The notes under the pieces are model-generated. The model had not been told where the DNA came from and did no database searches. It was given only the letters and a program-made list of their open reading frames with translations. The position numbers and the translations under genes are program-made. Positions 39,029-62,418 of a stretch of DNA of 64,000 nt are shown piece after piece (the first letter of the stretch is position 1; each line of letters starts with the position of its first letter). The stretch lies in IMG/VR virus record IMGVR_UViG_3300031857_000014, one strand, 5' to 3'. The DNA is from a virus (lineage: Duplodnaviria; Caudoviricetes).

Positions 39029-40024
39029 TTACCAACTATATACAATTATTTTACCATTTCCACCTTTTCCACCATCGCCACCTCTCGCACCGAAACCAAA
39101 ACCACCACCTCCACCACCTCCTCCCGGATATCCACCATCACCACCATTTGCACCTCTTGTTGTTGTGTTTGTTGAACCACCTCCACCACCACCACCATTT
39201 CCACAATAAATACCAGTATCACTTGTCGTTCCCGATGTACCAACAGTACCTATAGCACCATTCGTACCGGCAGAACCACCGTTACCTGCTGTGTATGATG
39301 ATGAAGAACCACCATTAGTAGGTGCAAAAGATGAACCACCTGACCTTGATCCACCATTCCCACCACCACCACCACCAAATAATGAACTTCCTCCGTTATA
39401 TTGAACATATAATGCACTATGACCTCCACCACCAGCACCACCGTACTCGGCGGTACCACCATTTGAATTTGTTTGTGAGTTACCTCCTTGACCGGAATTA
39501 GCAACATTTGATGTTGCTCCCGGAAGACCTCCTGAAAGACTAGATGCTGAAGAGGAATTACCTGCACTTCCACTACCACCACCAGAACCACCTGACAATG
39601 CGGATGCAATAATGTCACTGAATCCACCACCAGCACCACCACCAAAAGCAGTTAAGTAAACTGTTGAACCTGTACCAAATGTTGAGTTTCCACCAACAGT
39701 CGCGGCGGTAATTGGATTTAATCCGCCACCATGTAATCCACCTCCACCACCAGTACCTCCAGATGCCACAAAAATTGGTACTACCGATGGTAAATCAGAC
39801 GCAGTAAACATTTTAAAACAAACTGCACCACCACCTCCTCCAGTACCACCAGCTTGGTTATCTGTAGATGTGGTTGAAGCATAACCACCACCACCACCAC
39901 CACCTCCACCAATACAAACAACAAATACAAATTGAACACCCGTAGGTTTTGTCCAAGTTGTGAAACCTGTTGTTGTGTATATATCTACACTTCTTGCACT
40001 ATTTATTACGTTATTTATTGACAT
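39029..40024 (-). CDS. glycine-rich protein, paralogue 2
   Basis: TWTKPTG..VFVVCIGGGGGGGG...GGNGKIIVYSW. Confidence 0.85.
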   Translation of the reverse strand: MSINNVINSARSVDIYTTTGFTTWTKPTGVQFVFVVCIGGGGGGGGGYASTTSTDNQAGGTGGGGGAVCFKMFTASDLPSVVPIFVASGGTGGGGGLHGGGLNPITAATVGGNSTFGTGSTVYLTAFGGGAGGGFSDIIASALSGGSGGGSGSAGNSSSASSLSGGLPGATSNVANSGQGGNSQTNSNGGTAEYGGAGGGGHSALYVQYNGGSSLFGGGGGGNGGSRSGGSSFAPTNGGSSSSYTAGNGGSAGTNGAIGTVGTSGTTSDTGIYCGNGGGGGGGSTNTTTRGANGGDGGYPGGGGGGGGFGFGARGGDGGKGGNGKIIVYSW

Positions 40025-40035
40025 TTTATTTTAAT

Positions 40036-41031
40036 TTACCAAGAATAAACTCTAATCTCACCAATTCCACCGGTTCCTCCGGCACCCCCAATGGCACCTC
40101 CTGAATTACCGCCGCCACCACCTCCTCCGCCACCTCCGCCAGGCGTACCACCATTACCACCTCTTCCTCCTGATACAGTTGTTGATGTAGAACAACCACC
40201 ACCCCCACCGCCATCACCAGCAGCAATACCAACACGACTAGTTCCTGTTGAACCTGAAGTTGGTGGATTACCAGTTGTTCCACTTAACCCTCCTGTACCA
40301 CCAGTATAAATACCTGACGCACCTCCTGAACTTGGTTGTCTTGTATAACTAATACCACCAAAACCACCACATCCTCCGCCACCGCCACCAAATAAAGAAC
40401 ACCCTCCTTGAAATACTGTTACTCCACTGGCAGTGTATGCTCCCCCACCGGCACCACCATATTCAGCAGATGCTCCACCAAATGTTGAGTTTGATGCACC
40501 TCCTGTACCACCGATTGAAAGAGAAGTTGATGCTGACGATTGTGGGTTACCTCCAGCAACACTTGTTGAGTTTGACGCAGCATTCGTACCAACACTAGCG
40601 GTACCACCACCTCCACCACCACATGCTGCCGACTGAACAGTAACAAATCCACCTCCTCCACCACCGCCACCATATGCAACTAATAAAGTTGAACCTGAAC
40701 TAAATCTTGAATTACCACCACCAGTACCCGCATTTCCATTACCCGTTGTCCCTGCACCACCTGTACCTCCTGATGCTACAATTACAGTTTCTGATGAGGA
40801 TAATTCAGATGCGGTGTAGAGTCTTGAAACAAAAGCACCACCGCCGCCTCCTTTACCTGATTGTCTAATACCATTAGATGCGTTACCTCCACCACTTCCA
40901 CCACCACCACCGCCGCCTATACAAACAACATATACAAACTTAACACCTGTAGGTTTTGTCCAAGTTGTTGTTCCTACACCTGAAAATATTTGAGTATCTA
41001 TTATTTCGTTTATAGAATTATTAAATGACAT
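40036..41031 (-). CDS. glycine-rich protein, paralogue 1
   Basis: TWTKPTG..VYVVCIGGGGGGG...GGIGEIRVYSW. Confidence 0.85.
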   Translation of the reverse strand: MSFNNSINEIIDTQIFSGVGTTTWTKPTGVKFVYVVCIGGGGGGGSGGGNASNGIRQSGKGGGGGAFVSRLYTASELSSSETVIVASGGTGGAGTTGNGNAGTGGGNSRFSSGSTLLVAYGGGGGGGGFVTVQSAACGGGGGGTASVGTNAASNSTSVAGGNPQSSASTSLSIGGTGGASNSTFGGASAEYGGAGGGAYTASGVTVFQGGCSLFGGGGGGCGGFGGISYTRQPSSGGASGIYTGGTGGLSGTTGNPPTSGSTGTSRVGIAAGDGGGGGGCSTSTTVSGGRGGNGGTPGGGGGGGGGGGNSGGAIGGAGGTGGIGEIRVYSW

Positions 41032-41035
41032 ATTT

Positions 41036-44000
41036 TTAGTTTATATCGATATTACCAATTGCAGATAATACGGTGTATTCGTTATTTGTTGTTGTACACA
41101 ATAATTTAATTGCGTCATATGTTTGTGTTGATTGTACGTATCCTGTTGCACCTGAAGTAGAATTAACAATACCAAAATGAATTTGATGATTAGATTCTTG
41201 TGCAATTTTCCAACCTCCGGCACCAATACCAACAACTTCAATTATCGACCCAACTGATGCTGTAGAAGGTAATGTAATAATCACTTGTGACCCTGAATTA
41301 GTTATATACCCATTGTTTGTCACACCTGTTTGAGAAGATGTAATTGTTGACCAAGTAATAATACCCACACTATTTAAACTTCTTGTGTGTAAAACACCAG
41401 TGCCGTCTGTGGTAATAATATCAGTATCTGTTGATGGTTGTAATCCAACAAATTGAACAGGGTTTGTTGTTGCTGTGACAACTAAAGTATTAGCGGTCAA
41501 CCCCGCAGCAAAATATGTTTCACCCGGAACAGTTCCACCAGTAAACGTTCCACCTGAACCAGTCGTACCAGTAAAATTTACACCAAAATTTGGATATGTA
41601 CCAGTAATTTGAATGTTTGTCCCACCAGATATTGTTACTGTTTGGTCTGGCGATGTGTTGATTAATGTTATGTTACCATTAGTTGATGAACCAGATAAAC
41701 CTGTACTAGTCGTTATTGAATTAACAACATTTGTTAAATTGGAACCATCACCATATATTGTTCCACCACTTATTGTATTTGCGGTTAAACCTGCATTAAA
41801 TATTTGTCCTGATGTGAAAGTGTTTGATACATTTTCATACGCAACGTTATTATATTCTGACGATGTTAGGTGATAATATTCGCCACCGGTCCCACCTTGT
41901 ATTCCTGTTAGATCATTGTGAGATTGTACTGTTGATGGTTGAAATACTTGAGCAAACGCACTCTCAACAGTACCTGTCAAAGCCGACACTTGAACAATAA
42001 TTCTACCAGTTAAAAACGCATGTGATGTGATTAATTCGGGTAAATTAGGTTCTAACGATAATTGTGCTTCAGACACGTTATCATATTCGTCATTACCCCA
42101 AACTTCATATAAATGGTCATTTATTTCTTGACCTCTAAAATACCAGTTAACAAGATATTTTCCTGCGGTACCAGCGATTCTATCCGTTCCATTATCGTAA
42201 AATAAATTATTCAGTGTATTTGATGTTGTTGTATATGTCCATGTACCACCACTGTGAAAACTTTGAAAAAATACATCATCTGTACTATTAACCGCAACCA
42301 ATGTTTGTCTATTTGTACCATTCCATGCAACACCTGAAGATAAAGTCACAACACCCGTTGTCCCACTTAAACCCAAAGAAAAACCGTCTTCTCTTGCAAA
42401 CCTATCTGTGTAAATGATTCTATCGTTTAATTTATTTGGAAGACCAGCACCTTCGTTACCAAAATCTAATACGTGAACAAAATTATTTGCCCTATAAACT
42501 ATTAGGTACAATACTATATTACTACTATTGATTGTTGAGTCGTCTGTGAGAACATCGTACACCGGAGTTCCATTATTATAATCTATAACAATGTAGTTAG
42601 TATCTTCATTTGATAATGCAGGTATTCCTACACCTGTAGTTTGACCTGACACAGTGTATACTTCAACACTACCAGTAAACGCGGTATTACTATATAATGC
42701 AACTTGTGTGGTAGGGAATGTCATTGTACCATCATTATTGTTAATCCATAAGTCAGAATTAACAATCACTCCGGAATTATAATTAGATATATTATAATAA
42801 GTTGAAGCACTTATTGTATTTGCGGTTAATCCATTTGTAAAATTTGTTGCACCTGTTACTGTCCCACCCGTAAATGAAGTACCTGTCGAACCTGTAAAAT
42901 TTACACCAAAGTTTGGATATGCACTAACTATTTGAATTCCTGTCCCTCCGGATATTGTGATAGTTTGGTCCGGTGATGTATTAGTAATTGTTACAACACC
43001 ATTGTTTGTTGATGCCGAAATTCCTGTTCCGCCAGTCACAGAACTTACTGGTAAATTACTGTATGTCGATGCGCTTATTGTATTTGCCGTTAAACCACCA
43101 GTAAAATTCGTTGGACCTGATACAGTACCACCTGTGAATGTTCCACTTGATGTACCACCAGTTAATCCGGATAAAGGATATGTGTGAACAACACCAGTCG
43201 AGTCAATACTCAAAATCAAATTATCTGTAGTACTTCCAGTTAATCCTTGAATCCTAATAGGATTTGTACTACCTGAAATGTGTAATTTATTTGTTGGATT
43301 TCTTACACCAATACCTATTGTTTGTCCTGAAGTCAAAACTAATAAATTAGAATTAGCATCCCAATTATCATTTTGTGGTGTAACACCAAAAATTAATGGC
43401 CACCCCTCAGCACTAACGTTAGTTGAGTCGGTATGAATATAATGTGCTTTAGTTAAGTTATCTCCAACAAAAAGTAATGAATTCGCTATGTTATTTGCAG
43501 CAAATTGAAACGCATATCCATAACCAGAAGGATTTCCATTAGGTGTAAGTGCAACCGATACTCCGTAATTGGTTTCTTTTGATATTACTGTCAAATAATC
43601 TATGAATCCAGATGAAGTAGAACTTAATGTTGTATATTGTAAATCGAATGTATTACCACTTATAAAAGGTGCGTTCAAATTACCAAACACATTTACTTCA
43701 TTTTGGTTTACATTTAAAATATCACTTCTATTAAAATCGTCAGTACCATTACCGATTACAAATAATGAATTAGTATTACCTGTGAGATTATATTTTCCGG
43801 AAGCATGTTGACCTTCACCATCCGCATGTGTACCAATACCTTCAGAATGAGAATAATTACCATTAGCTCGTGTAGATAAACCTTCAGAATGTGAACCTAT
43901 ACCGTTAGATATATTTGTACAACCAGTAACAGAACTTAATATAACACCACTCCAATTATTCGTAAAAATAACATTTGATTCACCTGCTCCGGAATCGAAA

Positions 44001-47000
44001 ATTGCTTTGTCTATATAGTATGGTCCATAATAACATAAATTAACATCAAAAGAATTAAATATTAACCTACTTACTATCGAACCATCGGGTATTGATGACC
44101 AATCACCAATTATTCTAATTGTCGATTCATCTAACCAATCACCACTATATGATTCATAAGTGACACCTGAAACATCAATTCTAAAATATGTTAAAGGATT
44201 ATTCACTAATGGTTCAAAAGTATTTGAACCGTCAATAAAATATCCCGCACCTTCGGAATGTGAATATAAACCCACTGAATTTGTATAATAACCCTCTGAA
44301 TGAGAATATTCACCATTAGAATCAGTATTAAAACCTTCGGCATGTGAATAATTACCATTAGAATCATTATATGAACCTTCAGCATGTGAATGAGAACCTG
44401 GTGATCTTGAGAAATGACCTTCAGAATGTGAATATGAGCCGTTAGATTGTGTTTGTTCACCTTCACTATGTGAATAAGAACCATTTGCTATAGTACTATT
44501 CCCTTCAGAATGAGATCCGGTACCAAAAGCGGTAGACGAACCTTCCGCGTGAGAATAAATACCAATCGCACCTGAACTTACACCTTCTGAATGAGAATAA
44601 GCACCACTAGCAGTTGTACTTAATCCTTGTGCATGTGATAAAATACCACTTGGATTATTACTAGGTGCCCCTTGTTTAAATTTTTCAAGTATTGATAATG
44701 TTGATGCTGTTGTTCCTGTAAATGTTAATGATAATTCATTTTGATTTACTGTTCTAGGACTTGACAAAGTACCGTTACCGGTATATAAAGTATTTGGTAA
44801 ATTATTGTAAGTCGATGCACTTATTGTATTTGCAATTAAACCACCAGTAAAACTTGTTGACCCTGTAACAGTACCTCCACTTAATGGAAGATAAGGGAAT
44901 GATGTTTGACCTGTGTAGTTTACCCCAAAATTTGGATATGTTCCTGCAATCTGAATATTTGTTCCACCTGTAATTGTTACAGTTCTATCCGGAGATGTGT
45001 TTGTAACTGTTACAACACCATTACTTGTTGATGCTGAAATTCCTGTCCCACCAGTAACAGAACTTACTGGTAAATTACTGTATGTCGATGCAGATATTGT
45101 TGTTGCAGTTAAACCTTGTAATGACGTGTTACCACCAATATTCAAAGTGTTTCCGAATATAGATGTTCCTGAAAACGCACCATCCGCCCTTATGAATGAG
45201 GTAACAACATTACTTGAATTAACACCCTCTATTAAATTCGTTACCGAATCACCTGATATTGTACCATTTTTTATTGATAAACCATCTAATGTTGAATTAA
45301 TTGTGATTTCAGGATTAGATGAGTTATTATACGCTTGTTGTAAAGTTGTTGTTGATGTTCCACCCGCAGCGCCAATTAATTCACCAAATTTTGATACTGA
45401 GAAAAATTGAGCCTTACTTGTATCATTTAATTCAGTACAACTGCTTAAAACAGAAAGAATACCAATTAAAATACCATTATCTCTAAAATTGGGGAATGTA
45501 ACAAATGTTTCGTTTTGTAGTGCAGCAACAGCAGCCGCCAATTGGTTATACTCCTGTTGTCCGTATTGAATTCTTATTTGACCGTTTTGTAATAAATAAA
45601 TTCTTTGATTTGTTGCCTTTACACCAGTTATTGGTGTAATTACACCATTAACATCCTTATTTGATGGGTCAATTACTGTCGTATTCGACGCCGTTCCACC
45701 TGTTCGAGTTCTGTATTGAAAGGTTGTTGGACTTTGACTATTAATTGTTAAACTATTCGGATTTAATTTGTTTGTAATGTATCCAATACCAAGACCATAT
45801 AATGTACCTGCAGAAGTATTAAATGTTAAATTGGCACCATTATCGGATGGTATAACACCATCATTAATCAATTTAATCGAGGTAAACATATCCCTTAATT
45901 GGGATAGTGGTGATAATACAGAATCAGGTTCGTTAAATGTATTAATTAAAAACTGTTTATTTCCGTGACCAAACTTTCCAAGATATATGTTTTGTCTTCT
46001 TTGTTGTGGCGTTGGAAAACTTGTTTGTTGTGTTATTGTTGATGCACTTGTAAGTAATACATATGTTTCTGTTGCAGTAGAATAATATAATGAGGTGTTA
46101 CCTGTAGAACCAGAATATATAATAAGTTGAATTGTTGGATTTGCTGGTGCTGTCACATTATCAATTATCCAACCCTCAACCTCACCGACACTAAATGTTG
46201 TTCCTGATGGGTTATCAATACTAAGTCCACCGAATTGGAAAACACCGGTGGAACTATTATTAGCAGCCAATATATTATTTTCTTGAGTCGTAATAATTGT
46301 TCCCTCAATTTCATTTAATATTGTAACTTGTAATTTACCATTAGATGAATTATCTAAAACGTGACCGACTTCACAAGTTCTGCCTGTATAAAATAGGTCG
46401 GAATAACTCGCGAATCCACCCGCAACATGTTGAGATAAATAAACCTGTTCACCAATACTAAATCCTGTTAAATTAATATCTCTAACGACACCAAAAACAG
46501 TCATAAAACCAAATGAACCATTTGGTATATCATGAGTTGCAATACCTGATATTTGAAATTGTACCGCATCTCCACCCGTTCCGATTGCTAATGATACGGT
46601 TGGTGTACCTGAAATTGCACCTGTTATATGTAATGCCTGTCCATTATTTATTTGAACCCCTAAATTATTATAAATTCTAACTAAACTTTCTTGACCTAAA
46701 TTAACAGTTACATCATTACTTGGTGTTATTGGTTTGTATGATAAAGCATTTTCATTTGAGTCGTAATATAGTGTTCCTCCTGTTGGTGACGGTACGGTTG
46801 GTGTAGTATCAAAATCAATATAATTCACTGATAACCCACTCGTAAAAGTTGTGTTACCAAATACAGTTCCTCCAGAAAGTGAAAGAAAGTTTCCTGACGC
46901 ACCAGAAACAGGACCCCAATTAGCATTACCATTTGAATCACATGTTAATACGTAACCATTTATTTCTGTTCCGTTAGAATAAGTAAAACCACTGTTTATA

Positions 47001-47131
47001 GTTAACCCTGATAAAAAAGTTGGGTTAATTGGTATATCACCACCAATTCTATAAACAATTCCCGTACTTAAATCTGATTGAAGAACATAATCGAAACTAT
47101 CTTTAATTAACTGATTCCTAATATCTGACAT
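41036..47131 (-). CDS. 2031-aa tail fibre/adhesin with YadA-head-like and internal repeats
   Basis: More than 10 G-x-x-SH-[AS]-EG repeats, the LFVIGNG neck motif, repeated GGTV.G.T.F..GLTANTISASTY and TSPD.TVTI.GGT.IQI. Confidence 0.8.
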   Translation of the reverse strand: MSDIRNQLIKDSFDYVLQSDLSTGIVYRIGGDIPINPTFLSGLTINSGFTYSNGTEINGYVLTCDSNGNANWGPVSGASGNFLSLSGGTVFGNTTFTSGLSVNYIDFDTTPTVPSPTGGTLYYDSNENALSYKPITPSNDVTVNLGQESLVRIYNNLGVQINNGQALHITGAISGTPTVSLAIGTGGDAVQFQISGIATHDIPNGSFGFMTVFGVVRDINLTGFSIGEQVYLSQHVAGGFASYSDLFYTGRTCEVGHVLDNSSNGKLQVTILNEIEGTIITTQENNILAANNSSTGVFQFGGLSIDNPSGTTFSVGEVEGWIIDNVTAPANPTIQLIIYSGSTGNTSLYYSTATETYVLLTSASTITQQTSFPTPQQRRQNIYLGKFGHGNKQFLINTFNEPDSVLSPLSQLRDMFTSIKLINDGVIPSDNGANLTFNTSAGTLYGLGIGYITNKLNPNSLTINSQSPTTFQYRTRTGGTASNTTVIDPSNKDVNGVITPITGVKATNQRIYLLQNGQIRIQYGQQEYNQLAAAVAALQNETFVTFPNFRDNGILIGILSVLSSCTELNDTSKAQFFSVSKFGELIGAAGGTSTTTLQQAYNNSSNPEITINSTLDGLSIKNGTISGDSVTNLIEGVNSSNVVTSFIRADGAFSGTSIFGNTLNIGGNTSLQGLTATTISASTYSNLPVSSVTGGTGISASTSNGVVTVTNTSPDRTVTITGGTNIQIAGTYPNFGVNYTGQTSFPYLPLSGGTVTGSTSFTGGLIANTISASTYNNLPNTLYTGNGTLSSPRTVNQNELSLTFTGTTASTLSILEKFKQGAPSNNPSGILSHAQGLSTTASGAYSHSEGVSSGAIGIYSHAEGSSTAFGTGSHSEGNSTIANGSYSHSEGEQTQSNGSYSHSEGHFSRSPGSHSHAEGSYNDSNGNYSHAEGFNTDSNGEYSHSEGYYTNSVGLYSHSEGAGYFIDGSNTFEPLVNNPLTYFRIDVSGVTYESYSGDWLDESTIRIIGDWSSIPDGSIVSRLIFNSFDVNLCYYGPYYIDKAIFDSGAGESNVIFTNNWSGVILSSVTGCTNISNGIGSHSEGLSTRANGNYSHSEGIGTHADGEGQHASGKYNLTGNTNSLFVIGNGTDDFNRSDILNVNQNEVNVFGNLNAPFISGNTFDLQYTTLSSTSSGFIDYLTVISKETNYGVSVALTPNGNPSGYGYAFQFAANNIANSLLFVGDNLTKAHYIHTDSTNVSAEGWPLIFGVTPQNDNWDANSNLLVLTSGQTIGIGVRNPTNKLHISGSTNPIRIQGLTGSTTDNLILSIDSTGVVHTYPLSGLTGGTSSGTFTGGTVSGPTNFTGGLTANTISASTYSNLPVSSVTGGTGISASTNNGVVTITNTSPDQTITISGGTGIQIVSAYPNFGVNFTGSTGTSFTGGTVTGATNFTNGLTANTISASTYYNISNYNSGVIVNSDLWINNNDGTMTFPTTQVALYSNTAFTGSVEVYTVSGQTTGVGIPALSNEDTNYIVIDYNNGTPVYDVLTDDSTINSSNIVLYLIVYRANNFVHVLDFGNEGAGLPNKLNDRIIYTDRFAREDGFSLGLSGTTGVVTLSSGVAWNGTNRQTLVAVNSTDDVFFQSFHSGGTWTYTTTSNTLNNLFYDNGTDRIAGTAGKYLVNWYFRGQEINDHLYEVWGNDEYDNVSEAQLSLEPNLPELITSHAFLTGRIIVQVSALTGTVESAFAQVFQPSTVQSHNDLTGIQGGTGGEYYHLTSSEYNNVAYENVSNTFTSGQIFNAGLTANTISGGTIYGDGSNLTNVVNSITTSTGLSGSSTNGNITLINTSPDQTVTISGGTNIQITGTYPNFGVNFTGTTGSGGTFTGGTVPGETYFAAGLTANTLVVTATTNPVQFVGLQPSTDTDIITTDGTGVLHTRSLNSVGIITWSTITSSQTGVTNNGYITNSGSQVIITLPSTASVGSIIEVVGIGAGGWKIAQESNHQIHFGIVNSTSGATGYVQSTQTYDAIKLLCTTTNNEYTVLSAIGNIDIN

Positions 47132-52609: not shown

Positions 52610-53515
52610 AAATATTATCCATTTAGGATTCACAGTTTTAATCTTCGGATTATTTCTGAAGTTCTAATAAAAGATAATTGGGCGGTCTATAGTCCATTCA
52701 CCTTCGGGTGACAGATACCTTCGGGTATTTGAAAATAAACTATGAAAGTAGTATAAAGTGACTTACTTTGGTTGAAGTAGGTTGCGGTTCTCGAAAGAGA
52801 ACTCGAGTAGACAAGCGAGATATCATTTAATCTTGAGTACTGAGGGTGACACTGTAGGGAAAGTGGTTGAATGACTTGGCGATGTGGGTCGTCAGGTTGA
52901 GGTGGGAACACCAATAAGAATAACTCGTAGAATACATGCAAGAAATAAGGTCATCCTACTTTATAATTGCGTTGTTCAATATTAGAGTTGATTTAAAACC
53001 GAAAGGTATGATGATGTACAGATGGTGCTGTTATTATCCTTAATCTTTGTCCTACCAAGGACTTGATTATGAAGTTGACTTGAAATATGGAGACAGGGAT
53101 GTTTCAGAGGGTAGTTCAGTATTTTCTCGTTCAAAAGATGGGAGAACTGGTGACGGACCACTACCTTCAAAATCCACAAACCAAAACTTTTTGATTGTAT
53201 TCAAAAATATTAAATCAATAAAGAAAAAGTGTCCGTCAGTTGTCAGAAACAGGTGACTACACAGTCGTGAGGGGTTCACGGCCACAAAGGGTCTCAAGCC
53301 CGATGTGATTTTTAAGAAAGTTCTCTAATCCCGCAAGGATGAGTTGGGGTGGCAACCTCGAAGAGCAGCAAGTATTAAGAGAGTATTTGACAACTTTAGG
53401 ATTGGTTAATCTAATTGACCGTCACTGATTGGTACTACTCAAAAGGTAGTGGATAAGGGAAGAACAAATAATGTCCCCAAGTCAATCAATAGAACTTGTA
53501 ATCTCAGAGTTTCTT
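52610..53515 (+). ncRNA. large ornate non-coding RNA (~0.9 kb), GOLLD-like candidate
   Basis: No credible CDS, higher GC, cUUCGg hairpins (52698-52711, 52715-52728), GAAA/GCAA tetraloops, and 5'/3' end pairing AAGTTCTA(52659)/TAGAACTT(53490). Adjacent to the tRNA cluster. Family assignment untested. Confidence 0.75.
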
Positions 53516-53595
53516 TTAAAAAATTTGTTTCCTAGTTTAGTAAAACTATGGTGGTGGAGATAATGACTTCTTTATGCGGTCAGCCTCAAAATATG

Positions 53596-53623
53596 AAAGG
53601 ACTAGTAAACTAGTCCTTTTTTT
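53596..53623 (+). terminator. intrinsic terminator closing the ncRNA unit
   Basis: AAAGGACTAG-TAAA-CTAGTCCTTT followed by a T-tract. Confidence 0.85.
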
Positions 53624-53711
53624 ATTATACCACTTTTTTTTACCGGAAATTTTACTTATATTTATATTCAGTTAACGATTTTGTTAACTATAAACTAAAT
53701 AAAAATAAAAT

Positions 53712-54236
53712 ATGAAAAAAACAGTTTTCTTATTAGTTGCAACAATGTTAGCATTTACAACATTGTACGCACAAAAACAATCTGACATGTTTGTTAGTGG
53801 AACAGTATCGTTCACTAAAACTACAGATGTAGACGCATCTTATCAATTAAAACCAACTATCGGTTATTTTGTTACAAACAAACTTGCTGTTGGTGTACTT
53901 GGTGAAGTATCAAAATCAAGCACAGAAGAAGTATTGAATATCGGTGCTTTCGGAAGGTATCACTTTTTAACTGTTGGTAAAAATTGTCAAGTATTCTCAC
54001 AATTGAGTTTGGCTAACAATTCTACAACAGTTGCTGGTGTAAAAACATCCGGATTTGGTGCTAATTTAGGTCTTGGTTCAAACTATTTTGTTACCAAAAG
54101 ACTCGGTCTTACTATGGATTTAACCAATCTAATTACCTATTCAAATGTTGATTCTAAATCAACAATTAATATTGGTTTTGATGGTGTGGTAAACCCATTT
54201 GCAATTCCAAAATTTGGTGTTATTTATAATTTCTAA
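53712..54236 (+). CDS. small outer-membrane beta-barrel protein (Bacteroidota type, about 8 strands)
   Basis: Signal peptide ending LYA-Q, alternating amphipathic strands (IGYFVTNKLAVGV, GSNYFVTKRLGL), C-terminal Phe (GVIYNF). Confidence 0.85.
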   Translation: MKKTVFLLVATMLAFTTLYAQKQSDMFVSGTVSFTKTTDVDASYQLKPTIGYFVTNKLAVGVLGEVSKSSTEEVLNIGAFGRYHFLTVGKNCQVFSQLSLANNSTTVAGVKTSGFGANLGLGSNYFVTKRLGLTMDLTNLITYSNVDSKSTINIGFDGVVNPFAIPKFGVIYNF

Positions 54237-54257
54237 AAAAAATAACAAATATTATTT

Positions 54258-54286
54258 AATCCCCACAATAGTGGGGATTTTTTTTT
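54258..54286 (+). terminator. intrinsic terminator
   Basis: AATCCCCAC-AATA-GTGGGGATT followed by a T-tract. Confidence 0.85.
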
Positions 54287-54390
54287 GTCTAAACTTTTTG
54301 AGATTATTTTGAATAAAATAAAAATTGGTTCAAAATTTGATATAATTAAAATATTTAATATCTTGTTAACCTATTTATAATAAAGAACAT

Positions 54391-54942
54391 ATGAAAAATA
54401 TAACATTATTTTTATTTTTTTTAATAGGTTTTTTAAGTGTGAATGCACAAACCCCTGATACTGTTTGTTATCGTTCAAATAACTCAACATATCAAGTAAC
54501 AAATACACCGGGAAACACATATACTTGGACAGTCGCGTCACCTGGTGTTATTACAGGAGGACAAGGTACAAATGTGATTACAGTTAACTGGGGTTCAGCA
54601 AATCCTGGTTTAATTACAAATGCGGTTACAGTATTTCCAACAAGTGCTGAAGGTTGCGTAGGACCAACAGTATTATTAGATGTTTTTGTTTTAAACATTA
54701 TACCTACAGTAACACCGGTAGTGTTATGTGCAGATGCTGGTTGTGTTCCTTTAATTGGTTCACCATCGGGAGGAGTTTGGAGTGGATCCGGTGTTAGTGG
54801 TAATCAGTTCTGTCCTAATTTAGTTACTGCGGGTCAATACACCATAACATACACATATAGTTTGGCTGGATGTACGTTTACAGGTACGGGTACCGCAACT
54901 GTAAATCCATTACCAACAATAAGTCCTATACAACATGATTAA
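54391..54942 (+). CDS. exported Ig/PKD-like domain protein
   Basis: Signal peptide ending VNA-Q; TYTWTV...GGQGTNVITVNW; G.PSGGVWSG.GV..F.P...G.YTITYTY. Confidence 0.8.
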   Translation: MKNITLFLFFLIGFLSVNAQTPDTVCYRSNNSTYQVTNTPGNTYTWTVASPGVITGGQGTNVITVNWGSANPGLITNAVTVFPTSAEGCVGPTVLLDVFVLNIIPTVTPVVLCADAGCVPLIGSPSGGVWSGSGVSGNQFCPNLVTAGQYTITYTYSLAGCTFTGTGTATVNPLPTISPIQHD

Positions 54943-55502
54943 TGAAATGGATATTTTGTTTAATATATGTTTTACTGGGTTATGTCACATACGGACAACA
55001 AGAAATTGAATTATGTCCAGGTAATAGAAATACATTTACCTATTGGAGTAATTCATCTACATCAAATGGGGGTTGGTTATGGTTATTAAACCTTGACACA
55101 ATCTCAATAAACAGTAGTGTTAAAATAACATATCGAGACACCGGATTTTTTTTAATTACTGTTCATTATAAAGATGAATGTGGAGAACCTATTCGTTTTT
55201 ACAGAGTAAAAGTTAAAAAATGTCCCGAATCTGCAATATTTTTTCCAAACGCCTTTACACCAAATGGGGATGGATTAAATGATGGTTGGTCACCAATACC
55301 ATTTAAAATAATTGAAATGAAATGGAATGTGTGGAATCGTTATGGTCAAAAAGTATACGAAAGTAAATACATTGAAGACAAGTGGAATGGGTTATACAAA
55401 GAAACACCACAACCAATTGGTGGATATGTTTTTCAATGTTGGTGGAAAGGAATTGATGGTAAAACTGGATATAAAAAAGGAAATTTAATATTAATAAGAT
55501 GA
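54942..55502 (+). CDS. exported protein with a T9SS type B C-terminal domain (gliding-motility-associated CTD/CHU_C)
   Basis: IFFPNAFTPNGDGLNDGW...WNRYGQKVYES...WNG...G.YVF...KGNLILIR, the hallmark type B CTD. Confidence 0.92.
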   Translation: MKWIFCLIYVLLGYVTYGQQEIELCPGNRNTFTYWSNSSTSNGGWLWLLNLDTISINSSVKITYRDTGFFLITVHYKDECGEPIRFYRVKVKKCPESAIFFPNAFTPNGDGLNDGWSPIPFKIIEMKWNVWNRYGQKVYESKYIEDKWNGLYKETPQPIGGYVFQCWWKGIDGKTGYKKGNLILIR

Positions 55503-55645
55503 AAAAATATATAACACGAGCAATATTTTTAATTATTATTTTTTTCTTAGTGATGGTGTTTTCTGGATGTACAAAATATTATTCACCTGAAAAATATGCT
55601 AACCCAAAAAGAAAATATGAGGTAGAAAGGAGAAAAGTATATTAA
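55499..55645 (+). CDS. 48-aa lipoprotein, not in the ORF track
   Basis: Hand translation MKKYITRAIFLIIIFFLVMVFSG-CTKYYSPEKY...; lipobox FSG-C; fills the gap between coupled genes. Confidence 0.7.
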   Translation: MKKYITRAIFLIIIFFLVMVFSGCTKYYSPEKYANPKRKYEVERRKVY

Positions 55646-55646
55646 A

Positions 55647-57017
55647 ATGAGACAAATTATCACATTATTATTTACAATATTTTCAATTGCAGGTTATTCT
55701 CAATGTGGTAATACTGATTTTGAAACAGGGACATTTACTGGTTGGTCCGGTAAATTAGGAACTTGTTGTCCAATTAATCTTCCAAATAATGGTATTGTAA
55801 ATGGGAGACAAACAATAATGACACAAGGAATTGATCCTCACTCATGCGGTGGTTTAAGAACTGTTTATCAAGGTACATATTCCGCTAGATTAGGTAATGA
55901 TAGAATTGGTGCACAAGCTGAAGGGTTGTCATATACATTAACAATAACACCAGCATCAACAATAATAAGGTATGCGTATGCTGTTATATTTCAAGATCCG
56001 AACCACGCAACTGCAGACCAACCCCGGTTTCAATCGAGAGTTAGATTAGCAAATGGTTCGATAATACCTTGTACTGATTATACTGTTACCGCAGCATCAG
56101 ATTTACCTGGATTTCAATATTGCTCACCAACACCACCTGATACGACATTTATCGCGTGGAGAGATTGGACTGAAGTTGCTGTTGATTTAAGTGCATATGT
56201 TGGACAAACAGTTACACTTGAATTTGAAACTGGTGATTGTAGATTAAGAGGTCATTATGGTTATGCGTATATCGACGCAGTACAATGTGGTCAATCAAAT
56301 ACACATGTGACTTATTGTGAAGGTGATGACTCATTAACTATAAATGCAATGGGTGGATTTGCAAATTATGAATGGGAAACAGGTGATACCACACAACAAA
56401 TAACAATAAATCCAAACTTATATGATACTATAACGTGTACTGTAACAACATTTTTAGGTTGTGAATTAACATTATATTATATATTAGACATGGCACCAGG
56501 GTACCCTAATTTTATTTACAGTCCAAATTGTTCGGGATTAGTTCAATTCACAAATACAAGTACCGCATCATATACACCAATAAATTATTTGTGGACATTT
56601 CCTGATGGTACAACATCAACTTTAGAAAACCCAACACACATTTTTAGTCCAGGTATTCATAGTGTTAACTTACAAATTTCTTCTAATTTAGGTTGTGGTA
56701 GAGATACCACTATTTTGATAGAAATATATCCAACACCTGTACCTAATTTTTCCGCACCTAATGTTTGTTTAGGTGTTCCAACACCGTTTACAAATTTATC
56801 AACTCAAACCCTTGGGTATCCGGTAAGTTATTTGTGGGGTTTTGGTGATAATTCCACATCAACAAATACAAATCCAATTCACCTTTATAATAACTCTGGC
56901 ACATATTTGGTTACATTATATGCTGCAACAACAGGAACAGGATGTATGGATAGTATAACAGGACAAATAACTGTTTATCAAAATCCAATCATTATTGGTC
57001 CAATAATATCAAATTAA
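55647..57017 (+). CDS. exported protein with an N-terminal beta-sandwich domain and two PKD domains
   Basis: Signal peptide ending GYS-Q; DFETGTFTGW, SARLGN, YAYAVIFQDP.H; YLWTFPDGTTSTLENPTH.F and YLWGFGD..ST.TNPIH.Y..SGTY.V.L. Confidence 0.85.
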   Translation: MRQIITLLFTIFSIAGYSQCGNTDFETGTFTGWSGKLGTCCPINLPNNGIVNGRQTIMTQGIDPHSCGGLRTVYQGTYSARLGNDRIGAQAEGLSYTLTITPASTIIRYAYAVIFQDPNHATADQPRFQSRVRLANGSIIPCTDYTVTAASDLPGFQYCSPTPPDTTFIAWRDWTEVAVDLSAYVGQTVTLEFETGDCRLRGHYGYAYIDAVQCGQSNTHVTYCEGDDSLTINAMGGFANYEWETGDTTQQITINPNLYDTITCTVTTFLGCELTLYYILDMAPGYPNFIYSPNCSGLVQFTNTSTASYTPINYLWTFPDGTTSTLENPTHIFSPGIHSVNLQISSNLGCGRDTTILIEIYPTPVPNFSAPNVCLGVPTPFTNLSTQTLGYPVSYLWGFGDNSTSTNTNPIHLYNNSGTYLVTLYAATTGTGCMDSITGQITVYQNPIIIGPIISN

Positions 57018-58015
57018 TGAAACAATACTTAATAATTTTCTTTTTACTGTTTTCTAACTTTTTATATTCTCAATGTAAAGATGTGTATAGTGTTCAAATA
57101 GATTGTCCAACAGAACAGGATAGTTTAGTACTATACAATAACGCATTGAAAGTGTATGATTTTTATGATAATAATAAATCATATGAAAAAACAAGAACAA
57201 GAGAATTAACATCAGATTTTGATAAAAGAAACATATTTGAAGATTTAACAACGGCTAGAAGATTATTTTTTGTTATAAGAAGAGAAGTCGCTAAAATAAA
57301 AGAAACAGAAAAAAAATTTATTGCGGGTAAAACAAGCCCAAAATATGTTGACATTAATTACAAAGAATATTATCAAGAAGTTGATGAATATAGATTCTAT
57401 CAAAGAGAAATAGAAAGTCAAATAGTGAATAAATCCGCACCAATTGCAATTTATGATAATAGAATTGCACCAATTATTGTAAATGAATATCACTGTATTG
57501 ACTCAACAAGCCCTTATTTTGGTGATTTAGTAAACATACCATTATATATTCCTGTGACTGTTAAACCTTTTATGTTATTAACAGAATCAGAGTTAATTAT
57601 TCGTAATGATATTTTAAAAAAAATTGACCCTAACTACATACCAAAAAATATGAACAAACCACTAATAGATACAATGACTATTAGAGAAACAATAACCAAA
57701 ATAACAAATACTGAAGACAATAAAAAAAGAGTAATTATTAAAGATACAGTAATTAAAAAAGACAATATAAGAATAAAACAACCAGAAATACAATTAAGTT
57801 GTACATTCCCTATTCCTGTTTATGCATTTAATCCTATGAGAGGGGGAACGTTGGTTGGATTTGTTTGCGATAAATATTTTATAAAAATAAAACCATCACA
57901 ATACAACTATTATGCTGTACCTAAATGGGCTCAAGACATATTAGAAAATAAAAAAGATTTAAATAATCTCCTAAAAAACAAATTTGGTGATTATTTATTA
58001 GGCGTGATAGAATAA
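57017..58015 (+). CDS. exported hypothetical protein
   Basis: Signal peptide ending LYS-Q; 332 aa. Confidence 0.75.
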   Translation: MKQYLIIFFLLFSNFLYSQCKDVYSVQIDCPTEQDSLVLYNNALKVYDFYDNNKSYEKTRTRELTSDFDKRNIFEDLTTARRLFFVIRREVAKIKETEKKFIAGKTSPKYVDINYKEYYQEVDEYRFYQREIESQIVNKSAPIAIYDNRIAPIIVNEYHCIDSTSPYFGDLVNIPLYIPVTVKPFMLLTESELIIRNDILKKIDPNYIPKNMNKPLIDTMTIRETITKITNTEDNKKRVIIKDTVIKKDNIRIKQPEIQLSCTFPIPVYAFNPMRGGTLVGFVCDKYFIKIKPSQYNYYAVPKWAQDILENKKDLNNLLKNKFGDYLLGVIE

Positions 58016-58025
58016 AATAAAAATT

Positions 58026-60305
58026 ATGAAAAAAATATCAATCATTTTAATTTTAACAATAATCTTTTCTTCAGCAAATGCAAGAAAATTTTACTTTAGT
58101 AGTTCTACAGGTAGTGATACCTACACTACAACTCAAGCACAAAATCAATCAACTCCATGGGCGAGTCTTAAAAAAATGGAACAAGTGTCACGAACTGCGA
58201 ATGTTTTTCAAGCGGGTGACACATTAGCATTTAAACGTGGTGATGTTTTTGCGAACGGGTACATCAATACTTTTGCAAGTATGCAATGGAGAAATGATGG
58301 TGGTACTTATTGGATTGCACCAAGTGGTACTCCAGATAGACCTATTGTAATCACAAATTACGGAGACCAAACTTTACCATTACCAAATTGGTTATGGCCA
58401 ACAACCACATCTCCTGTTAACGCTTGGCCAAACACAAGGCCGGCAAGACATGTTGTTTGTTTTACAGGTGTTGCGAATATAGTGATTGATGGTATTCAAT
58501 CCAATGATTTCAGATTTCCCGAGAATGATAAAATTACACCCGCATATACAGGTGGATGGTTAATTGGAGAATGGACAAATTCTAGAACTGTCAATGGAGT
58601 TTATGTTCAAGGTGCGAATAACCCCAATAATAGAAAATATATGGTTACAAACTTCAAGGTTCGTAACTGTGTGTTTAATAACATTCAATATGGTTTTGGT
58701 GGGATAGCTGCAATTAATAGCGAATTTAGTTATAATAGAATAACAAATTTAAAGGCTACGACAGATACTGCTGGTGTGAATGATGTGATGGCAGGTGCTT
58801 TCGAAGCTTTAAGTGGGTTTTATGTCAATATACATCACAACTATATAAAAGGGGCTTGGGCTAAAAGTGGACGAATAAGTTCAACAAATGGACTCGGCGG
58901 TGTTGGTTTTGATATTCTTAACTTAAAAAATAGTAAAATTGCATATAATACAGTGATTGATTGTTCGGGTATGTGGGAAATTGGTAATCTGGACAGATTA
59001 GACTCTACTTCAGGTGCACAATACGATACCTTCGCATTTAACAAAGTAATTAACTGTGGTAATTTCGGTTATTTACATGGTTCGACAGGATCATTTATTG
59101 GTAATAATCATCATTTATCTTTTTGGAACAATGTAATAATATCTAATAACAAAGACAGACAAAATGGATTAGGTTTTGGAAAAGACGTTTATGGGGATGG
59201 ACAAGGATTTGCACCAGGGACACCTAATGCTTGGTGGATGTGTAGAAACCCTTTGAGTACATGGAATCAATCACCATATATCCCTTCAACAACTACAACA
59301 GCTGGTTCAAACATAGTTACCGTGAGTAATGTAACAGGAATACGAATAGGTAGTGTAGCATTCGCAAACAATGATAGTCTTTTAGGTACAACATATCAAA
59401 CAGTTACTGTAACATCAATAAACGGAAATCAACTCACATTGAGTGTAAACTGTACTCGTTCTACTATCACTACGAATGTGGCTTATTACCTACCTGTATC
59501 TGATACCACATGGAGTACTCCACTCAATTCATCATTTGCTAATTACGGTGGTACAAGAGCTTTTATTCAGTATGCTTCTGACAATACCACTTTTGGTTCA
59601 TATATTGATACAATGATTGATAGTAGAAATAATATCATGTATTGGACCACAGGTATACAAGGAGTTTATGATAGAACAAGATTCAAAAGAAATAGTAATA
59701 TATACACACCTATTGGTGGTGCTAGATTTACAACTTCGGTCGGTAGTCCATTAAGAACTTCTGAAAGAGTTATCACAACCAAACTATTCAGGGACACTAC
59801 CGCCTTATATCCCGAGGATTGGGACTTACATCCTGTGGATACAAGTTACGCTTATGCGACAGGGTCACCAACACCAGGGTTTACCGTAGACTTTGAAGGT
59901 AAACCAATAACGACACCTTTTATCGGATTATTTTCAAAGTTAAATGTCGTTACTATAGATACTTGTAGATTCACATATGGACAGTGGAGTTCTTGTAATG
60001 GAAGTTTTCAAACAAGACCATATACCTCATTTCCCTCGGGTTGTGTTGGCGTCCCACCACTTGATAGTATTCAAAGAAGTTGTGTCGTTGTTTCACCGGT
60101 TAGATATTTTTATTATAGTCCAAGTAGAGTTAGTATTAGAATTGAATCATCTACTTCAGGAGTAATTACAATTACAAATACTTTAGGTCAAGTAATTCGT
60201 AATATAAATTATTCTGCAGGAGGTTCTTGGAAAAGTGTTAATTTTTTACCTTCCGGAACATATACTGCAAGAACTTATGATAAATCATTTTTGTTTATAA
60301 GATGA
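58026..60305 (+). CDS. exported right-handed beta-helix protein with a T9SS type A C-terminal domain
   Basis: Signal peptide; YFSSSTGSD...PWASL...GDTLAFKRG (beta-helix N-cap); Asn ladders; C-terminal ITNTLGQVI...FLPSGTY. Confidence 0.8.
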   Translation: MKKISIILILTIIFSSANARKFYFSSSTGSDTYTTTQAQNQSTPWASLKKMEQVSRTANVFQAGDTLAFKRGDVFANGYINTFASMQWRNDGGTYWIAPSGTPDRPIVITNYGDQTLPLPNWLWPTTTSPVNAWPNTRPARHVVCFTGVANIVIDGIQSNDFRFPENDKITPAYTGGWLIGEWTNSRTVNGVYVQGANNPNNRKYMVTNFKVRNCVFNNIQYGFGGIAAINSEFSYNRITNLKATTDTAGVNDVMAGAFEALSGFYVNIHHNYIKGAWAKSGRISSTNGLGGVGFDILNLKNSKIAYNTVIDCSGMWEIGNLDRLDSTSGAQYDTFAFNKVINCGNFGYLHGSTGSFIGNNHHLSFWNNVIISNNKDRQNGLGFGKDVYGDGQGFAPGTPNAWWMCRNPLSTWNQSPYIPSTTTTAGSNIVTVSNVTGIRIGSVAFANNDSLLGTTYQTVTVTSINGNQLTLSVNCTRSTITTNVAYYLPVSDTTWSTPLNSSFANYGGTRAFIQYASDNTTFGSYIDTMIDSRNNIMYWTTGIQGVYDRTRFKRNSNIYTPIGGARFTTSVGSPLRTSERVITTKLFRDTTALYPEDWDLHPVDTSYAYATGSPTPGFTVDFEGKPITTPFIGLFSKLNVVTIDTCRFTYGQWSSCNGSFQTRPYTSFPSGCVGVPPLDSIQRSCVVVSPVRYFYYSPSRVSIRIESSTSGVITITNTLGQVIRNINYSAGGSWKSVNFLPSGTYTARTYDKSFLFIR

Positions 60306-60946
60306 GAATAATTTTAATGTTATTAATTTTATTTAGTCCTAATTTACAGGTTTATCAAGAAAATCTTGTAACAGAAAATGAACATGTTTTAATACGAATT
60401 TTTAAATATGAACAAGAACTTGAAGTTTGGGTGAATAACTCAGAAAAAAAAGAATACTATTTGTATAAAAAGTATTCCATTTGTAAAATAAGTGGAACTC
60501 TCGGACCAAAAAGAAAAGAAGGTGATTATCAAGTTCCAGAAGGGTTTTATTACATAAACGATTTTAACCCTAAAAGTAAATATAAAAAAAGTTTAGGTAT
60601 AAATTATCCAAATGAATCTGATAAAATACTAAGTACATATAAAAAATTAGGTGGAAACATATACATACATGGTGATTGTGTTTCAGTTGGGTGTATTGCT
60701 ATTGGTAATAAATTTATTGAAGAGTTATTTTTAATTTGTATAAGAACAAAAAATCCGATTCCGGTTCACATTTTCCCAATTAACTTTAACAATAATAAAT
60801 CTAAAAATTCATTACTATATTACAATTATGTTTATGAAAACAAAAATTTTGAAACTAATTTAAAAAATGGTTTTAACTTTTTTGAAGAAAAAAAATATCC
60901 GCCAAAAATAAAAGTAGACAGTTTGGGATATTACCAATTTTTTTAG
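60302..60946 (+). CDS. L,D-transpeptidase (YkuD) family protein, YafK/DpaA-like
   Basis: GPKRKEGDYQVPEGFY, SLGINYPN, GGNIYIHGDCVSVGC (HxxxxSxGC catalytic motif). Confidence 0.88.
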   Translation: MRIILMLLILFSPNLQVYQENLVTENEHVLIRIFKYEQELEVWVNNSEKKEYYLYKKYSICKISGTLGPKRKEGDYQVPEGFYYINDFNPKSKYKKSLGINYPNESDKILSTYKKLGGNIYIHGDCVSVGCIAIGNKFIEELFLICIRTKNPIPVHIFPINFNNNKSKNSLLYYNYVYENKNFETNLKNGFNFFEEKKYPPKIKVDSLGYYQFF

Positions 60947-60960
60947 TTATATTTACAAAT

Positions 60961-61644
60961 ATGAAAATAGTATTAATTTCAGACACTCACGGTTTACATG
61001 AAAAAATGTTGTATAACTTACCTGAAGGTGATATGATAATCTGTGCTGGAGATATAAGTAATGTCGGTAGTATATTTGAAATTAATCAATTTACACAATG
61101 GTTTTCTAAATTGCAGTATAAATACAAAATTTTTATTGCGGGTAACCATGATTTTGGTTTTGAAAAAATTAGAAAATCTAATGAAATAGGTATTAGTATT
61201 CCACATGGTGTGATATATCTTGAAGATGAAATGGTTGAAATTGAAGGATTAAAAATATATGGTAGTCCTTGGCAACCCGAATTTCATAATTGGGCATTTA
61301 ATTTACCAAGAAACGGTGATCAAATAAAATTCAAATGGGATTCAATACCTGATGATACAGATATATTAATTACTCACGGACCACCTTTTGAATGTTTAGA
61401 TATTACACCAACAAATCAAAGAGTTGGTTGTGAATTATTAAAAATTAGATTAGATGATTTGAAACCAAAACTTCATGTGTTTGGTCATATACATGACAGT
61501 TATGGAATAAAATATACAAGTGACACATTATCTGTAAATGCGTCTATTTGTAATGAAAGATATCAACCGATAAATAAACCAATTGTTGTTGAGGTGTCTG
61601 AAGTTTATGGTGAAAAAGTCATAACTTATGTTGATAATGGTTGA
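60961..61644 (+). CDS. calcineurin-like metallophosphoesterase
   Basis: ISDTH, AGD, AGNHD, THGPP, FGHIH. Confidence 0.92.
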   Translation: MKIVLISDTHGLHEKMLYNLPEGDMIICAGDISNVGSIFEINQFTQWFSKLQYKYKIFIAGNHDFGFEKIRKSNEIGISIPHGVIYLEDEMVEIEGLKIYGSPWQPEFHNWAFNLPRNGDQIKFKWDSIPDDTDILITHGPPFECLDITPTNQRVGCELLKIRLDDLKPKLHVFGHIHDSYGIKYTSDTLSVNASICNERYQPINKPIVVEVSEVYGEKVITYVDNG

Positions 61645-61694
61645 TAAGATATTTAATATTTTTCATAGATATTTATATAGTACAACTAAATAAC

Positions 61695-61922
61695 ATGAAA
61701 AAAATCGTAAACTTTTTTAAGTCTATTTTTACTACTCTTGGTTTAGACACTCAAATTGAAGAAATAAAAAAAGAGATAAAAGAAGAGGTTAAAGAAACCG
61801 TTGAAGAAGTAAAAACAAAGACTAGAAAACAAGTTAAAACCGCAAAAGAAAAAGTTTTAGGTAAGGAGGAAAAATCCACCAAAAAACAACCAGTCAAAAA
61901 AACTTCAGCAAAAAAGAAATAA
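61695..61922 (+). CDS. small Lys/Glu-rich protein
   Basis: Start MKKIV at 61695 after a TATTTAT motif. Confidence 0.6.
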   Translation: MKKIVNFFKSIFTTLGLDTQIEEIKKEIKEEVKETVEEVKTKTRKQVKTAKEKVLGKEEKSTKKQPVKKTSAKKK

Positions 61923-61966: not shown

Positions 61967-62384
61967 GGGCCTGCCTTGGTTTTGACGGACATTTGTATGG
62001 TAAATGGGCATGTAGTCGGATGTCATCTACGACTTAAATCTACGGTGGTAAAATTCAAACGGCAACGTTTACAACAACATGGAAATTGCAGGTCTTCTTG
62101 CAACTTCTAAAGTAGCTGCTTAATTAAGTACCTACTCTCGGGTCGGTTAGGACATATAACCTAGGAACAGAAGTCCATGAGGTTTAACACCTACCACGTG
62201 ATTCAGTTCAGAAAAGTGTGTTGGAGCAAATCAGACGGCTCCTTAAATCCGGTTTGGGGATTGTTGGAAGTAGTTATCTAAATCTATAACTTCCTATTTG
62301 TTGATTATGAATAATCAAATAAACATGTAGTCCATTTATTGTTCGGTGTTTCGGACAGCGGTTCGACTCCGCTCAGGTCCACCA
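61967..62384 (+). ncRNA. ssrA: tmRNA; predicted tag (A)GNVYNNMEIAGLLATSKVAA at 62061-62123
   Basis: GGGCCTG/CAGGTCC-ACCA acceptor with G3.U70, TTGACGG near the 5' end, GCGG-TTCGACT-CCGC T arm, internal ORF ending AA-stop. Confidence 0.95.
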
Positions 62385-62391
62385 CAAATAA

Positions 62392-62418
62392 AATTCCCCT
62401 CATTTGAGGGGTTTTTTG
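62392..62418. terminator. intrinsic terminator after tmRNA
   Basis: CCCCTCA-TT-TGAGGGG followed by a T-tract. Confidence 0.75.

Follow-up and report, generated by a model that had tools for sequence, protein, structure and literature searches.

An island of eight exported-protein genes with predicted type IX secretion cargo in a T4-like phage of Bacteroidota

We analysed a stretch of 64,000 nucleotides (referred to as the window) from the virus record IMGVR_UViG_3300031857_000014 (Duplodnaviria; Caudoviricetes), whose source contig measures ~205 kb, and focused on an island of eight consecutive plus-strand genes, g1 to g8, at positions 53712-60946. The original prediction had described all eight as envelope-targeted, and the island is confirmed: every open reading frame (ORF) is in place on the plus strand, and each product begins with an N-terminal signal peptide in which a basic n-region is followed by a hydrophobic h-region. 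A crude hydrophobicity scan of the 61 genes in the window flagged nine, eight of which are g1-g8 in one contiguous run; the ninth is the terminase with a doubtful GTG start, leaving g1-g8 as the sole credible positives. Directly after the likely signal peptidase I site, five of the eight products carry glutamine (YA/QKQ, NA/QTP, YG/QQE, YS/QCG and YS/QCK, with the slash marking the site), a residue that at the +1 position constitutes the Q-rule of Bacteroidetes (PMC5837995). Judged from these N-termini, export of all eight proteins by the Sec pathway is very likely.

Two of the eight proteins carry features of type IX secretion (T9SS) cargo, which is recognized by its C-terminal domain (CTD). 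The clearer case is g3 (54942-55502, plus strand, 186 aa), in which a signal peptide and one PKD-like domain precede a CHU_C/TIGR04131 CTD that spans residues 101-185 of 186 and scores above the cut-offs of both PF13585 (44.6 bits, cut-off 27) and TIGR04131 (45.4 bits, cut-off 35). Its N-terminus, MKWIFCLIYVLLGYVTYG followed by QQE, is a Sec signal peptide with a Q-rule site, and orthologues with 43-55% identity are found on three other phage contigs (L001, L011 and L019). Read from its sequence, g3 is a type B T9SS cargo protein that is complete though minimal, its export itself being predicted.

The second candidate is g7 (58026-60305, plus strand, 759 aa), an exported right-handed beta-helix protein. 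Its AlphaFold2 (AF2) model, with a pLDDT of 86.9, shows the beta-helix followed by a C-terminal sandwich of seven strands within residues 690-759 (pLDDT ~88-92). A compact seven-strand Ig-like beta-sandwich at the C-terminus is the form described for type A CTDs (PMC11285876). The C-termini of 14 of 24 g7 orthologues match PF18962 (best E 3.9e-6), the orthologue alignment displays the typical pattern ...LG..v....Y.a.G.w..v..L..G.Y.a.....f.R, and an hhalign comparison to a single bona fide CTD gave an E value of 0.011 in the correct register. A type A CTD is thus probable for g7, an assignment that rests on the family and not on the score of g7 itself. The original claim of cargo of both CTD types holds for g3 at the level of its own profile matches; for g7, whose own score stays under the cut-off, it is carried by the PF18962 matches of its orthologues.

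The helix of g7 has structural matches with Z scores of 24.9 to 6kfn and 24.1 to 1ru4, of 20-23 to GH28, PL6 and tailspike structures, and more broadly of 20-25 to polysaccharide lyase families PL9, PL31 and PL6, glycoside hydrolase families GH28 and GH136, epimerases and tailspikes, with no clear winner; the profile of the g7 family found no match among PDB sequences. On the basis of the modelled fold we consider g7 a candidate polysaccharide lyase or hydrolase of depolymerase-like character. The likeness to phage tailspikes and depolymerases as well as to PL6, PL9, PL31, GH28 and GH136 enzymes lies in the shared right-handed beta-helix (root-mean-square deviation ~3 A over ~300 residues); the difference is that g7 has a Sec signal and a probable C-terminal sorting domain rather than a virion-attachment domain. 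The family comprises more than 185 metagenomic proteins on contigs of 8 kb to 320 kb, and nearly all of ~120 homologues (P0001-P0120, the source contig of the window being row P0001) keep the signal peptide. A reading of g7 as a virion protein was rejected because of this family-wide conservation. At least four C-terminal tails appear interchangeably in the family, namely the type A CTD, an SprB repeat followed by a basic cysteine tail ending in ...RRNRNC or ...SVTCP, a tail ending in ...KSRLKFKN and one ending in ...RKKFINKN.

Directly upstream of g7 and conserved as its neighbour lies g6 (57017-58015, plus strand, 332 aa), an exported orphan without match in Pfam, NCBIfam or PHROG. It has more than 150 homologues with at least 13 invariant polar residues, and the pairing of g6 with g7 recurs on seven contigs (L001, L004, L005, L009, L011, L019 and L028). 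On a 45-kb phage (L009:8981-15721), the g6 homologue directly precedes a protein of 2246 aa containing four tandem g7-like helices, and in the 31-kb siphovirus-like phage UFOVP778 a g6 homologue occurs as a lone gene on the opposite strand. Foldseek ranked the GH136 enzyme LnbX first for g7, which raised the idea of g6 acting as an LnbY-like chaperone; as re-ranking with VIA placed generic lyases first, the GH136 link is non-specific, and the idea was dropped to the level of speculation. Cellular homologues of g6 with 38-45% identity are present on contigs of metagenome-assembled genomes (MAGs) of Chitinophagaceae (L036, L038, L040 and L041), where their neighbours are those of an ordinary chromosome (ppk/ppx, efflux, TonB-type receptors, ars genes) and where they are sometimes tandem duplicates; one of them adjoins a PKD_6 cargo protein of 1581 aa with a type A CTD. 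Through these homologues in freshwater MAGs, the host of the phage probably belongs to the Chitinophagaceae.

The remaining genes of the left half encode a barrel, two PKD proteins and a lipoprotein. The product of g1 (53712-54236, plus strand, 174 aa) combines a signal peptide with a C-terminal phenylalanine. It scores 24.4 bits against the outer-membrane barrel family OMP_b-brl (PF13505), below the gathering cut-off of 28.7, but reaches an Atlas feature score of 0.98 and structural TM values of 0.76-0.82 to PF13505 clusters, and an orthologue with 49% identity is encoded on L001. We accept it as a divergent small outer-membrane protein (OMP) barrel of the Bacteroidota type. Downstream of it, g2 (54391-54942, plus strand, 183 aa) encodes an exported PKD-like protein that matches PKD_6 with 37.6 bits (cut-off 25) and ends in PLPTISPIQHD, and g4 (55499-55645, plus strand, 48 aa) encodes a lipoprotein with the lipobox VFSG/C, which reads FNGC in its L019 orthologue. 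The larger PKD protein g5 (55647-57017, plus strand, 456 aa) is likewise exported and has an N-terminal domain similar to the one in cellular CHU_C-associated proteins and, after it, two PKD_4 domains (85 bits). Its orthologues share 66-73% identity and adjoin g3 in every case; L019 carries a g2/g3-like fusion. The CTD-less PKD proteins share the C-terminal tail P-L-P-T-I-[TS]-P-I-[IQ]-H-[ND] and always adjoin a mini type B CTD protein; the corresponding sites are 54907-54942 and 56982-57017 in the window as well as L001:9956-9991, L011:1936-1971 and L019:6408-6443. The tail may act as a signal for docking, or it may be the remnant of a linker between domains.

The last gene of the island, g8 (60302-60946, plus strand), encodes an exported YkuD-fold protein with a signal peptide, which had been put forward as an L,D-transpeptidase. 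Membership in the YkuD superfamily stood (PF03734, 38.2 bits, cut-off 23.4; phrog_17304 also matches), whereas the assignment as a transpeptidase proper did not. Transpeptidases of this type have a conserved arginine two residues after the catalytic cysteine, exposed in a groove with two entrances (PMC10653827). In g8 the sequence at this place is C-I-A, with alanine, as in DpaA Ala145, where transpeptidases carry arginine. The protein aligns to Escherichia coli DpaA (8IKR) with an E value of 2.8e-31 over ~190 residues, its loop IHGDCVSVGC aligns with the DpaA catalytic loop with both the catalytic histidine and cysteine present, and the equivalents of DpaA Cys143, Ala145 and Lys83 (GPK) are retained. 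Against the DpaA equivalog model NF040599, however, it scores 123 bits with a cut-off of 365 and is not an equivalog. From its sequence, g8 likely belongs to the hydrolase subfamily of YafK/DpaA, of the amidase subtype. It thus shares with E. coli DpaA/YafK (LdtF; 8IKR) the HG..C..GC loop, the alanine, the Lys83 equivalent and the signal peptide (PMC8263019, PMC10653827). It differs in being phage-borne (phrog_17304, function unassigned), and Lpp-peptidoglycan, on which DpaA acts, is not known from Bacteroidota.

The layout of the locus points to two transcription units. On its left side the island is bounded by a terminator-like hairpin (53595-53620, plus strand) with an 11-bp stem and a T run, which closes an upstream unit holding a full-length GOLLD RNA (53107-53510, plus strand; Rfam RF02032, 326 bits) immediately 5' of the island. 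It is followed by the promoter-like motif ATATTTATA (53658-53666, plus strand), 46 nt 5' of g1, and, beyond g1, by a second terminator-like hairpin (54258-54279, plus strand) with a 9-bp stem containing five GC pairs and then T7. A further promoter-like motif, CTATTTATA (54371-54379, plus strand), lies 12 nt 5' of g2. Because of these hairpins and the intergenic gaps of 0-14 nt across g2-g10, we define g1 as a predicted monocistronic gene and g2-g10 as one putative operon (54391-61922). Its last two genes encode no signal peptide: g9 (60961-61644, plus strand), a metallophosphoesterase, belongs to the same closely spaced operon without being an envelope protein, and the block ends with g10 (61692-61922, plus strand), which has the ATATTTATA motif ahead of it and encodes a small Lys/Glu-rich protein. 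Directly 3' of the operon the phage encodes its own transfer-messenger RNA (tmRNA; 61967-62384, plus strand), which was not reported by ARAGORN and came from an Rfam match over the full model (RF00023, 102.5 bits); a bidirectional terminator-like hairpin 3' of the tmRNA gene (62396-62411) forms the right boundary. The island is therefore located within a stable-RNA region, with GOLLD upstream and the tmRNA downstream. In its general form, nTATTTAT[AT], the motif lies closer to start codons than any other AT-only 8-mer of the window, and it occurs 4-46 nt 5' of at least 15 start codons (for example at 8637, 18976, 19742, 28836, 47505, 53658, 54371 and 61669), preceding g1, g2, g10, the protease and other head-module genes. 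We regard it as a candidate phage, possibly late, promoter; a scan for sigma-70 promoters performed no better than on shuffled sequence (60 found, 56 expected).

The surrounding genes bore out the earlier assignment to a T4-like phage of Bacteroidota. The window encodes a T4-type portal with 36% identity to the portal of Flavobacterium phage immuto, a major head protein, prohead protease, large terminase, dUTPase, PhoH, a glycosyltransferase and four tRNAs, and the phage DNA has a GC content of ~30%.

The island is genuine phage DNA. Related phages carry versions of the module, its sequencing depth equals that of the flanks, its GC content is like that of the rest of the phage, and the phage promoter-like motif precedes its genes. 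One relative, L001/G001, is a complete phage genome of 170 kb that has terminal repeats and whose portal is related (39% identity); it encodes orthologues of g1, g3, g5, g7 and g6 together with an OmpA-like protein and a lipoprotein of 514 aa. A 167-kb contig (L011) has the order g3-g5-g7-g8-g6, L004 has Peptidase_C1-g6-g7-g8, and L019 carries ten consecutive signal-peptide genes that include g2/g3, g4, g5, an extra type-A-like cargo gene, g7, g8, g6 and an OmpA-like protein; conservation and synteny across related phages were among the checks that the original prediction asked for. The chimeric host insert that it named as a refutation is not borne out: in two independent metagenomes the island shows the contig depth of its flanks, single contigs span 53428-59363, and most of the island is present in 13 or more runs from lakes and rivers. 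Rough ratios of nonsynonymous to synonymous substitution rates (dN/dS) of 0.07-0.4 indicate that the genes are under purifying selection. Capsid and island similarities are discordant among the relatives, with G004 sharing 69% identity in the major capsid protein and 45% in g7, and G001 sharing ~45% in the capsid protein compared to 58% in g7 and 66% in g5, which suggests that the module moves between phages. Among 50,697 GenBank phage records, a nucleotide search with the island and tblastn searches with g1, g6 and g7 found no match; for g3 and g5, tblastn returned only domain-level matches in two huge metagenomic phages, and g8 matched only two short records. PHROGs contain nothing for g1-g7.

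Several further features of the phages were recorded alongside the island. An AAA+ protein of 670 aa annotated as 'ATP-dependent protease' is encoded at 30799-32811 on the plus strand (phrog_4871, E 3e-240). The minus-strand region 38021-47131 holds three Gly_rich_2 paralogues of ~331 aa each next to an ORF of 2031 aa without Pfam match and is set apart by a GC content of 41-46% and a strong negative GC skew, compared to ~30% GC elsewhere in the window; it is probably the tail-fibre region. In the plus-strand ORF at 35605-36024, an internal start, MKKSLLTIFVFIF..., resembles a signal or membrane-anchor sequence, and the ORF may thus encode a further exported protein beyond the island. The window capsid protein matches the major capsid genes of two relatives (G001:C1:52953-54533 and G005:C1:120111-121955) in two separated pieces, one with an in-frame TAA, and this may reflect an intron or intein.

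The concept of phage-encoded T9SS cargo is not new, contrary to the original prediction, which knew of no description of such a system; the earlier reports (2019-2020) derive from sequence only. Bellas et al. (2020; Nat Commun 11:4403; PMC7468147) described three type A CTD cargo genes in a 76-kb uncultured Bacteroidetes 'Cryophage' and proposed that they hijack the host T9SS and may serve to exclude superinfecting phages, de Jonge et al. (2019; PMC6949934) reported proteins with T9SS sorting domains in crAss-like phages, and Matrishin et al. (2023; PMC10367356) noted genes with Q-rule signal peptides in Porphyromonas phages. The Cryophage resembles the phage described here in placing T9SS sorting domains on carbohydrate-active or carbohydrate-binding modules, in genes that are flexible between variants, and, like the present island, it is known in silico only. 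It is not T4-like, however, its endoglucanase, GH39 and PA14 genes are scattered rather than organized in an operon, and genes for a type B CTD, an OMP, a lipoprotein or a YafK-like protein are absent from it. The crAss-like phages, with their T9SS sorting-domain and BACON proteins, likewise encode T9SS sorting domains together with Ig-like or carbohydrate-binding repeats, but there the genes adjoin head and tail genes and may be structural, and no signal-peptide operon or envelope enzymes have been described.

A wider comparison is offered by the envelope morons and exclusion proteins of phages, such as Lom and Bor of lambda, Llp of T5 and Cor, which are exported OMPs or lipoproteins that alter the surface or block receptors. 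These are single genes, mostly of temperate or T5-type phages of Enterobacteria, without T9SS, and they show no sequence similarity to the island proteins as judged from the lack of PHROG hits alone. What appears to be new in the present locus is its organization as a predicted operon in a module shared horizontally among T4-like jumbo phages, the apparent pairing of type A and type B CTDs with genes for an OMP, for a lipoprotein and for a DpaA-like enzyme, and the large families of g6 and g7.

Given one clear type B and one probable type A CTD protein, both with Sec signals, use of the host T9SS by the phage is a reasonable inference, export by this route being likely for g3 and probable for g7, provided that the host has a T9SS. 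The best explanation of the locus is that it forms an accessory module for remodelling the surface of the infected Bacteroidota cell, a reading to which we assign a probability of roughly 0.45. In such a moron-type module, probably governed by the same promoter class as the head genes, g1-g8 would cross the inner membrane via Sec; the host T9SS would next carry g3 and g7 to the cell surface or into the medium, g1 would insert in the outer membrane, g4 would be lipid-anchored, and g2, g5, g6 and g8 would remain periplasmic or ride along. The secreted beta-helix protein g7 and its partner g6 would constitute the conserved core, with g7 acting on a host surface polysaccharide or glycan, while g8, as a DpaA-like amidase, might cut protein-peptidoglycan tethers and loosen the envelope, and the adhesin-like Ig/PKD proteins g3, g5 and g2 might occupy surface or T9SS sites of host adhesins. 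The surface that phages recognize would thereby be stripped or masked, blocking superinfection, and the change might also stop progeny from sticking to infected cells or debris and ease their release. T9SS-secreted adhesins are thought to be receptors of Flavobacterium phages, and T9SS or gliding mutants are phage-resistant (PMC9804748), which makes surface remodelling the most economical reading. A more elaborate version, in which a lytic T4-like jumbo phage puts cargo of its own on the host T9SS during infection, strikes us as somewhat unlikely in its entirety. Here g3, assisted by g2/g5, would be an adhesin decoy in competition with receptor adhesins, g7/g6 would strip surface glycans as a depolymerase and g8, as an amidase, would loosen the outer membrane; the resulting coat would mask and destroy receptors, and freshwater Bacteroidota phages would exchange it horizontally.

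A number of observations weigh against surface remodelling through the host T9SS. Type B cargo is usually encoded near a cognate outer-membrane partner of the PorP/SprF type. Among ten proteins of the island and its flanks none matches PorP_SprF, g1 being a barrel of the 8-strand PF13505 type, and g3 would therefore need a host partner. The PKD proteins g2 and g5 are without CTD, and g7 itself scores 16.9 bits against TIGR04183, below the cut-off of 23, and has no PF18962 match. The fold of g7 is common to many enzyme classes and points to no single substrate, and g6 showed no recognizable fold in a PDB-wide VIA search (Z at most 3.1), among AlphaFold Database (AFDB) clusters (E above 0.08) or in Atlas, which returned nothing usable. 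The host, and hence the host T9SS, is deduced solely via homologues in Chitinophagaceae MAGs. Since most loci with g7 homologues are without other island genes, the genes of the island may be only loosely grouped and not form a single machine. Finally, two small freshwater metatranscriptomes yielded just one 247-nt contig inside g7, at a depth of 2.2 and possibly derived from DNA; GOLLD and tmRNA from related phages dominate both RNA libraries, related GOLLD copies reaching contig depths above 1000.

Among the other explanations, we weighed whether the proteins aid lysis and egress by dismantling the envelope late in infection from the periplasmic side: g8 would release outer-membrane proteins from the peptidoglycan, g1 together with g4 would serve as outer-membrane or spanin-type components, and g7 would clear capsule or exopolysaccharide for virion escape. 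The assignment of g8 to the DpaA/YafK hydrolase subtype fits this proposal, as do the late-type promoter motif common to the island and the head genes, the size of the lipoprotein g4, which is similar to that of o-spanins, and the joint presence of g7, g8 and g6 in L004, L011 and L019. The block contains no holin, endolysin or i-spanin, however, G001 has the module without g8, a T9SS-tagged Ig-type protein such as g3 has no obvious role in lysis, and we know of no established covalent tethers between outer membrane and peptidoglycan in Bacteroidota. Taken together, a primary function in lysis appears unlikely.

An auxiliary metabolic or 'public goods' module, in which g7 and the binding proteins g2, g3 and g5 would harvest carbon during a long latent period, is in our estimation quite unlikely. 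Bacteroidota do use T9SS-secreted glycanases for carbon harvest, g7 has the beta-helix fold of carbohydrate-active enzymes, the close relative L004 carries a secreted-type Peptidase_C1 adjoining g6/g7, and phage endoglucanase and GH39 proteins with type A CTDs are on record (PMC7468147). Yet the OMP, the lipoprotein and the DpaA-like enzyme are a poor fit to nutrient harvesting, secreted enzymes help neighbouring cells as much as the doomed one, and the block encodes no transporter or SusC/D partner. That the island is a mis-assembled host fragment or a set of recently captured host genes without a role in infection, as might be supposed from the cellular Bacteroidota that are the nearest named relatives of g1, g3, g5 and g6 and from the lack of g1-g8 homologues in GenBank cultured phages beyond domain-level matches, is very improbable and largely refuted by the flank-like depth on long contigs from independent samples, the phage-like GC content and promoter-like motif, the orthologous modules carried by a complete phage genome (170 kb, terminal repeats) and by further viral contigs, and the purifying selection on the genes.

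If surface remodelling is the correct reading, a virulent phage would exploit a phylum-specific secretion machine to rebuild the surface of its host, and competition between phages and hosts, as well as among phages, would gain a new layer in freshwater Bacteroidota, a group with a major part in polysaccharide degradation. The well-conserved operon would be a good test case for phage-encoded T9SS cargo, and several of its products may serve as reagents: g3 (186 aa) as a compact carrier of a type B CTD, g7 as a member of a large, previously unnoticed family of secreted beta-helix proteins with interchangeable sorting tails, and g6 as its orphan partner protein. In g8, lastly, a phage-borne DpaA-like amidase hints at the existence of covalent outer-membrane tethers in Bacteroidota.

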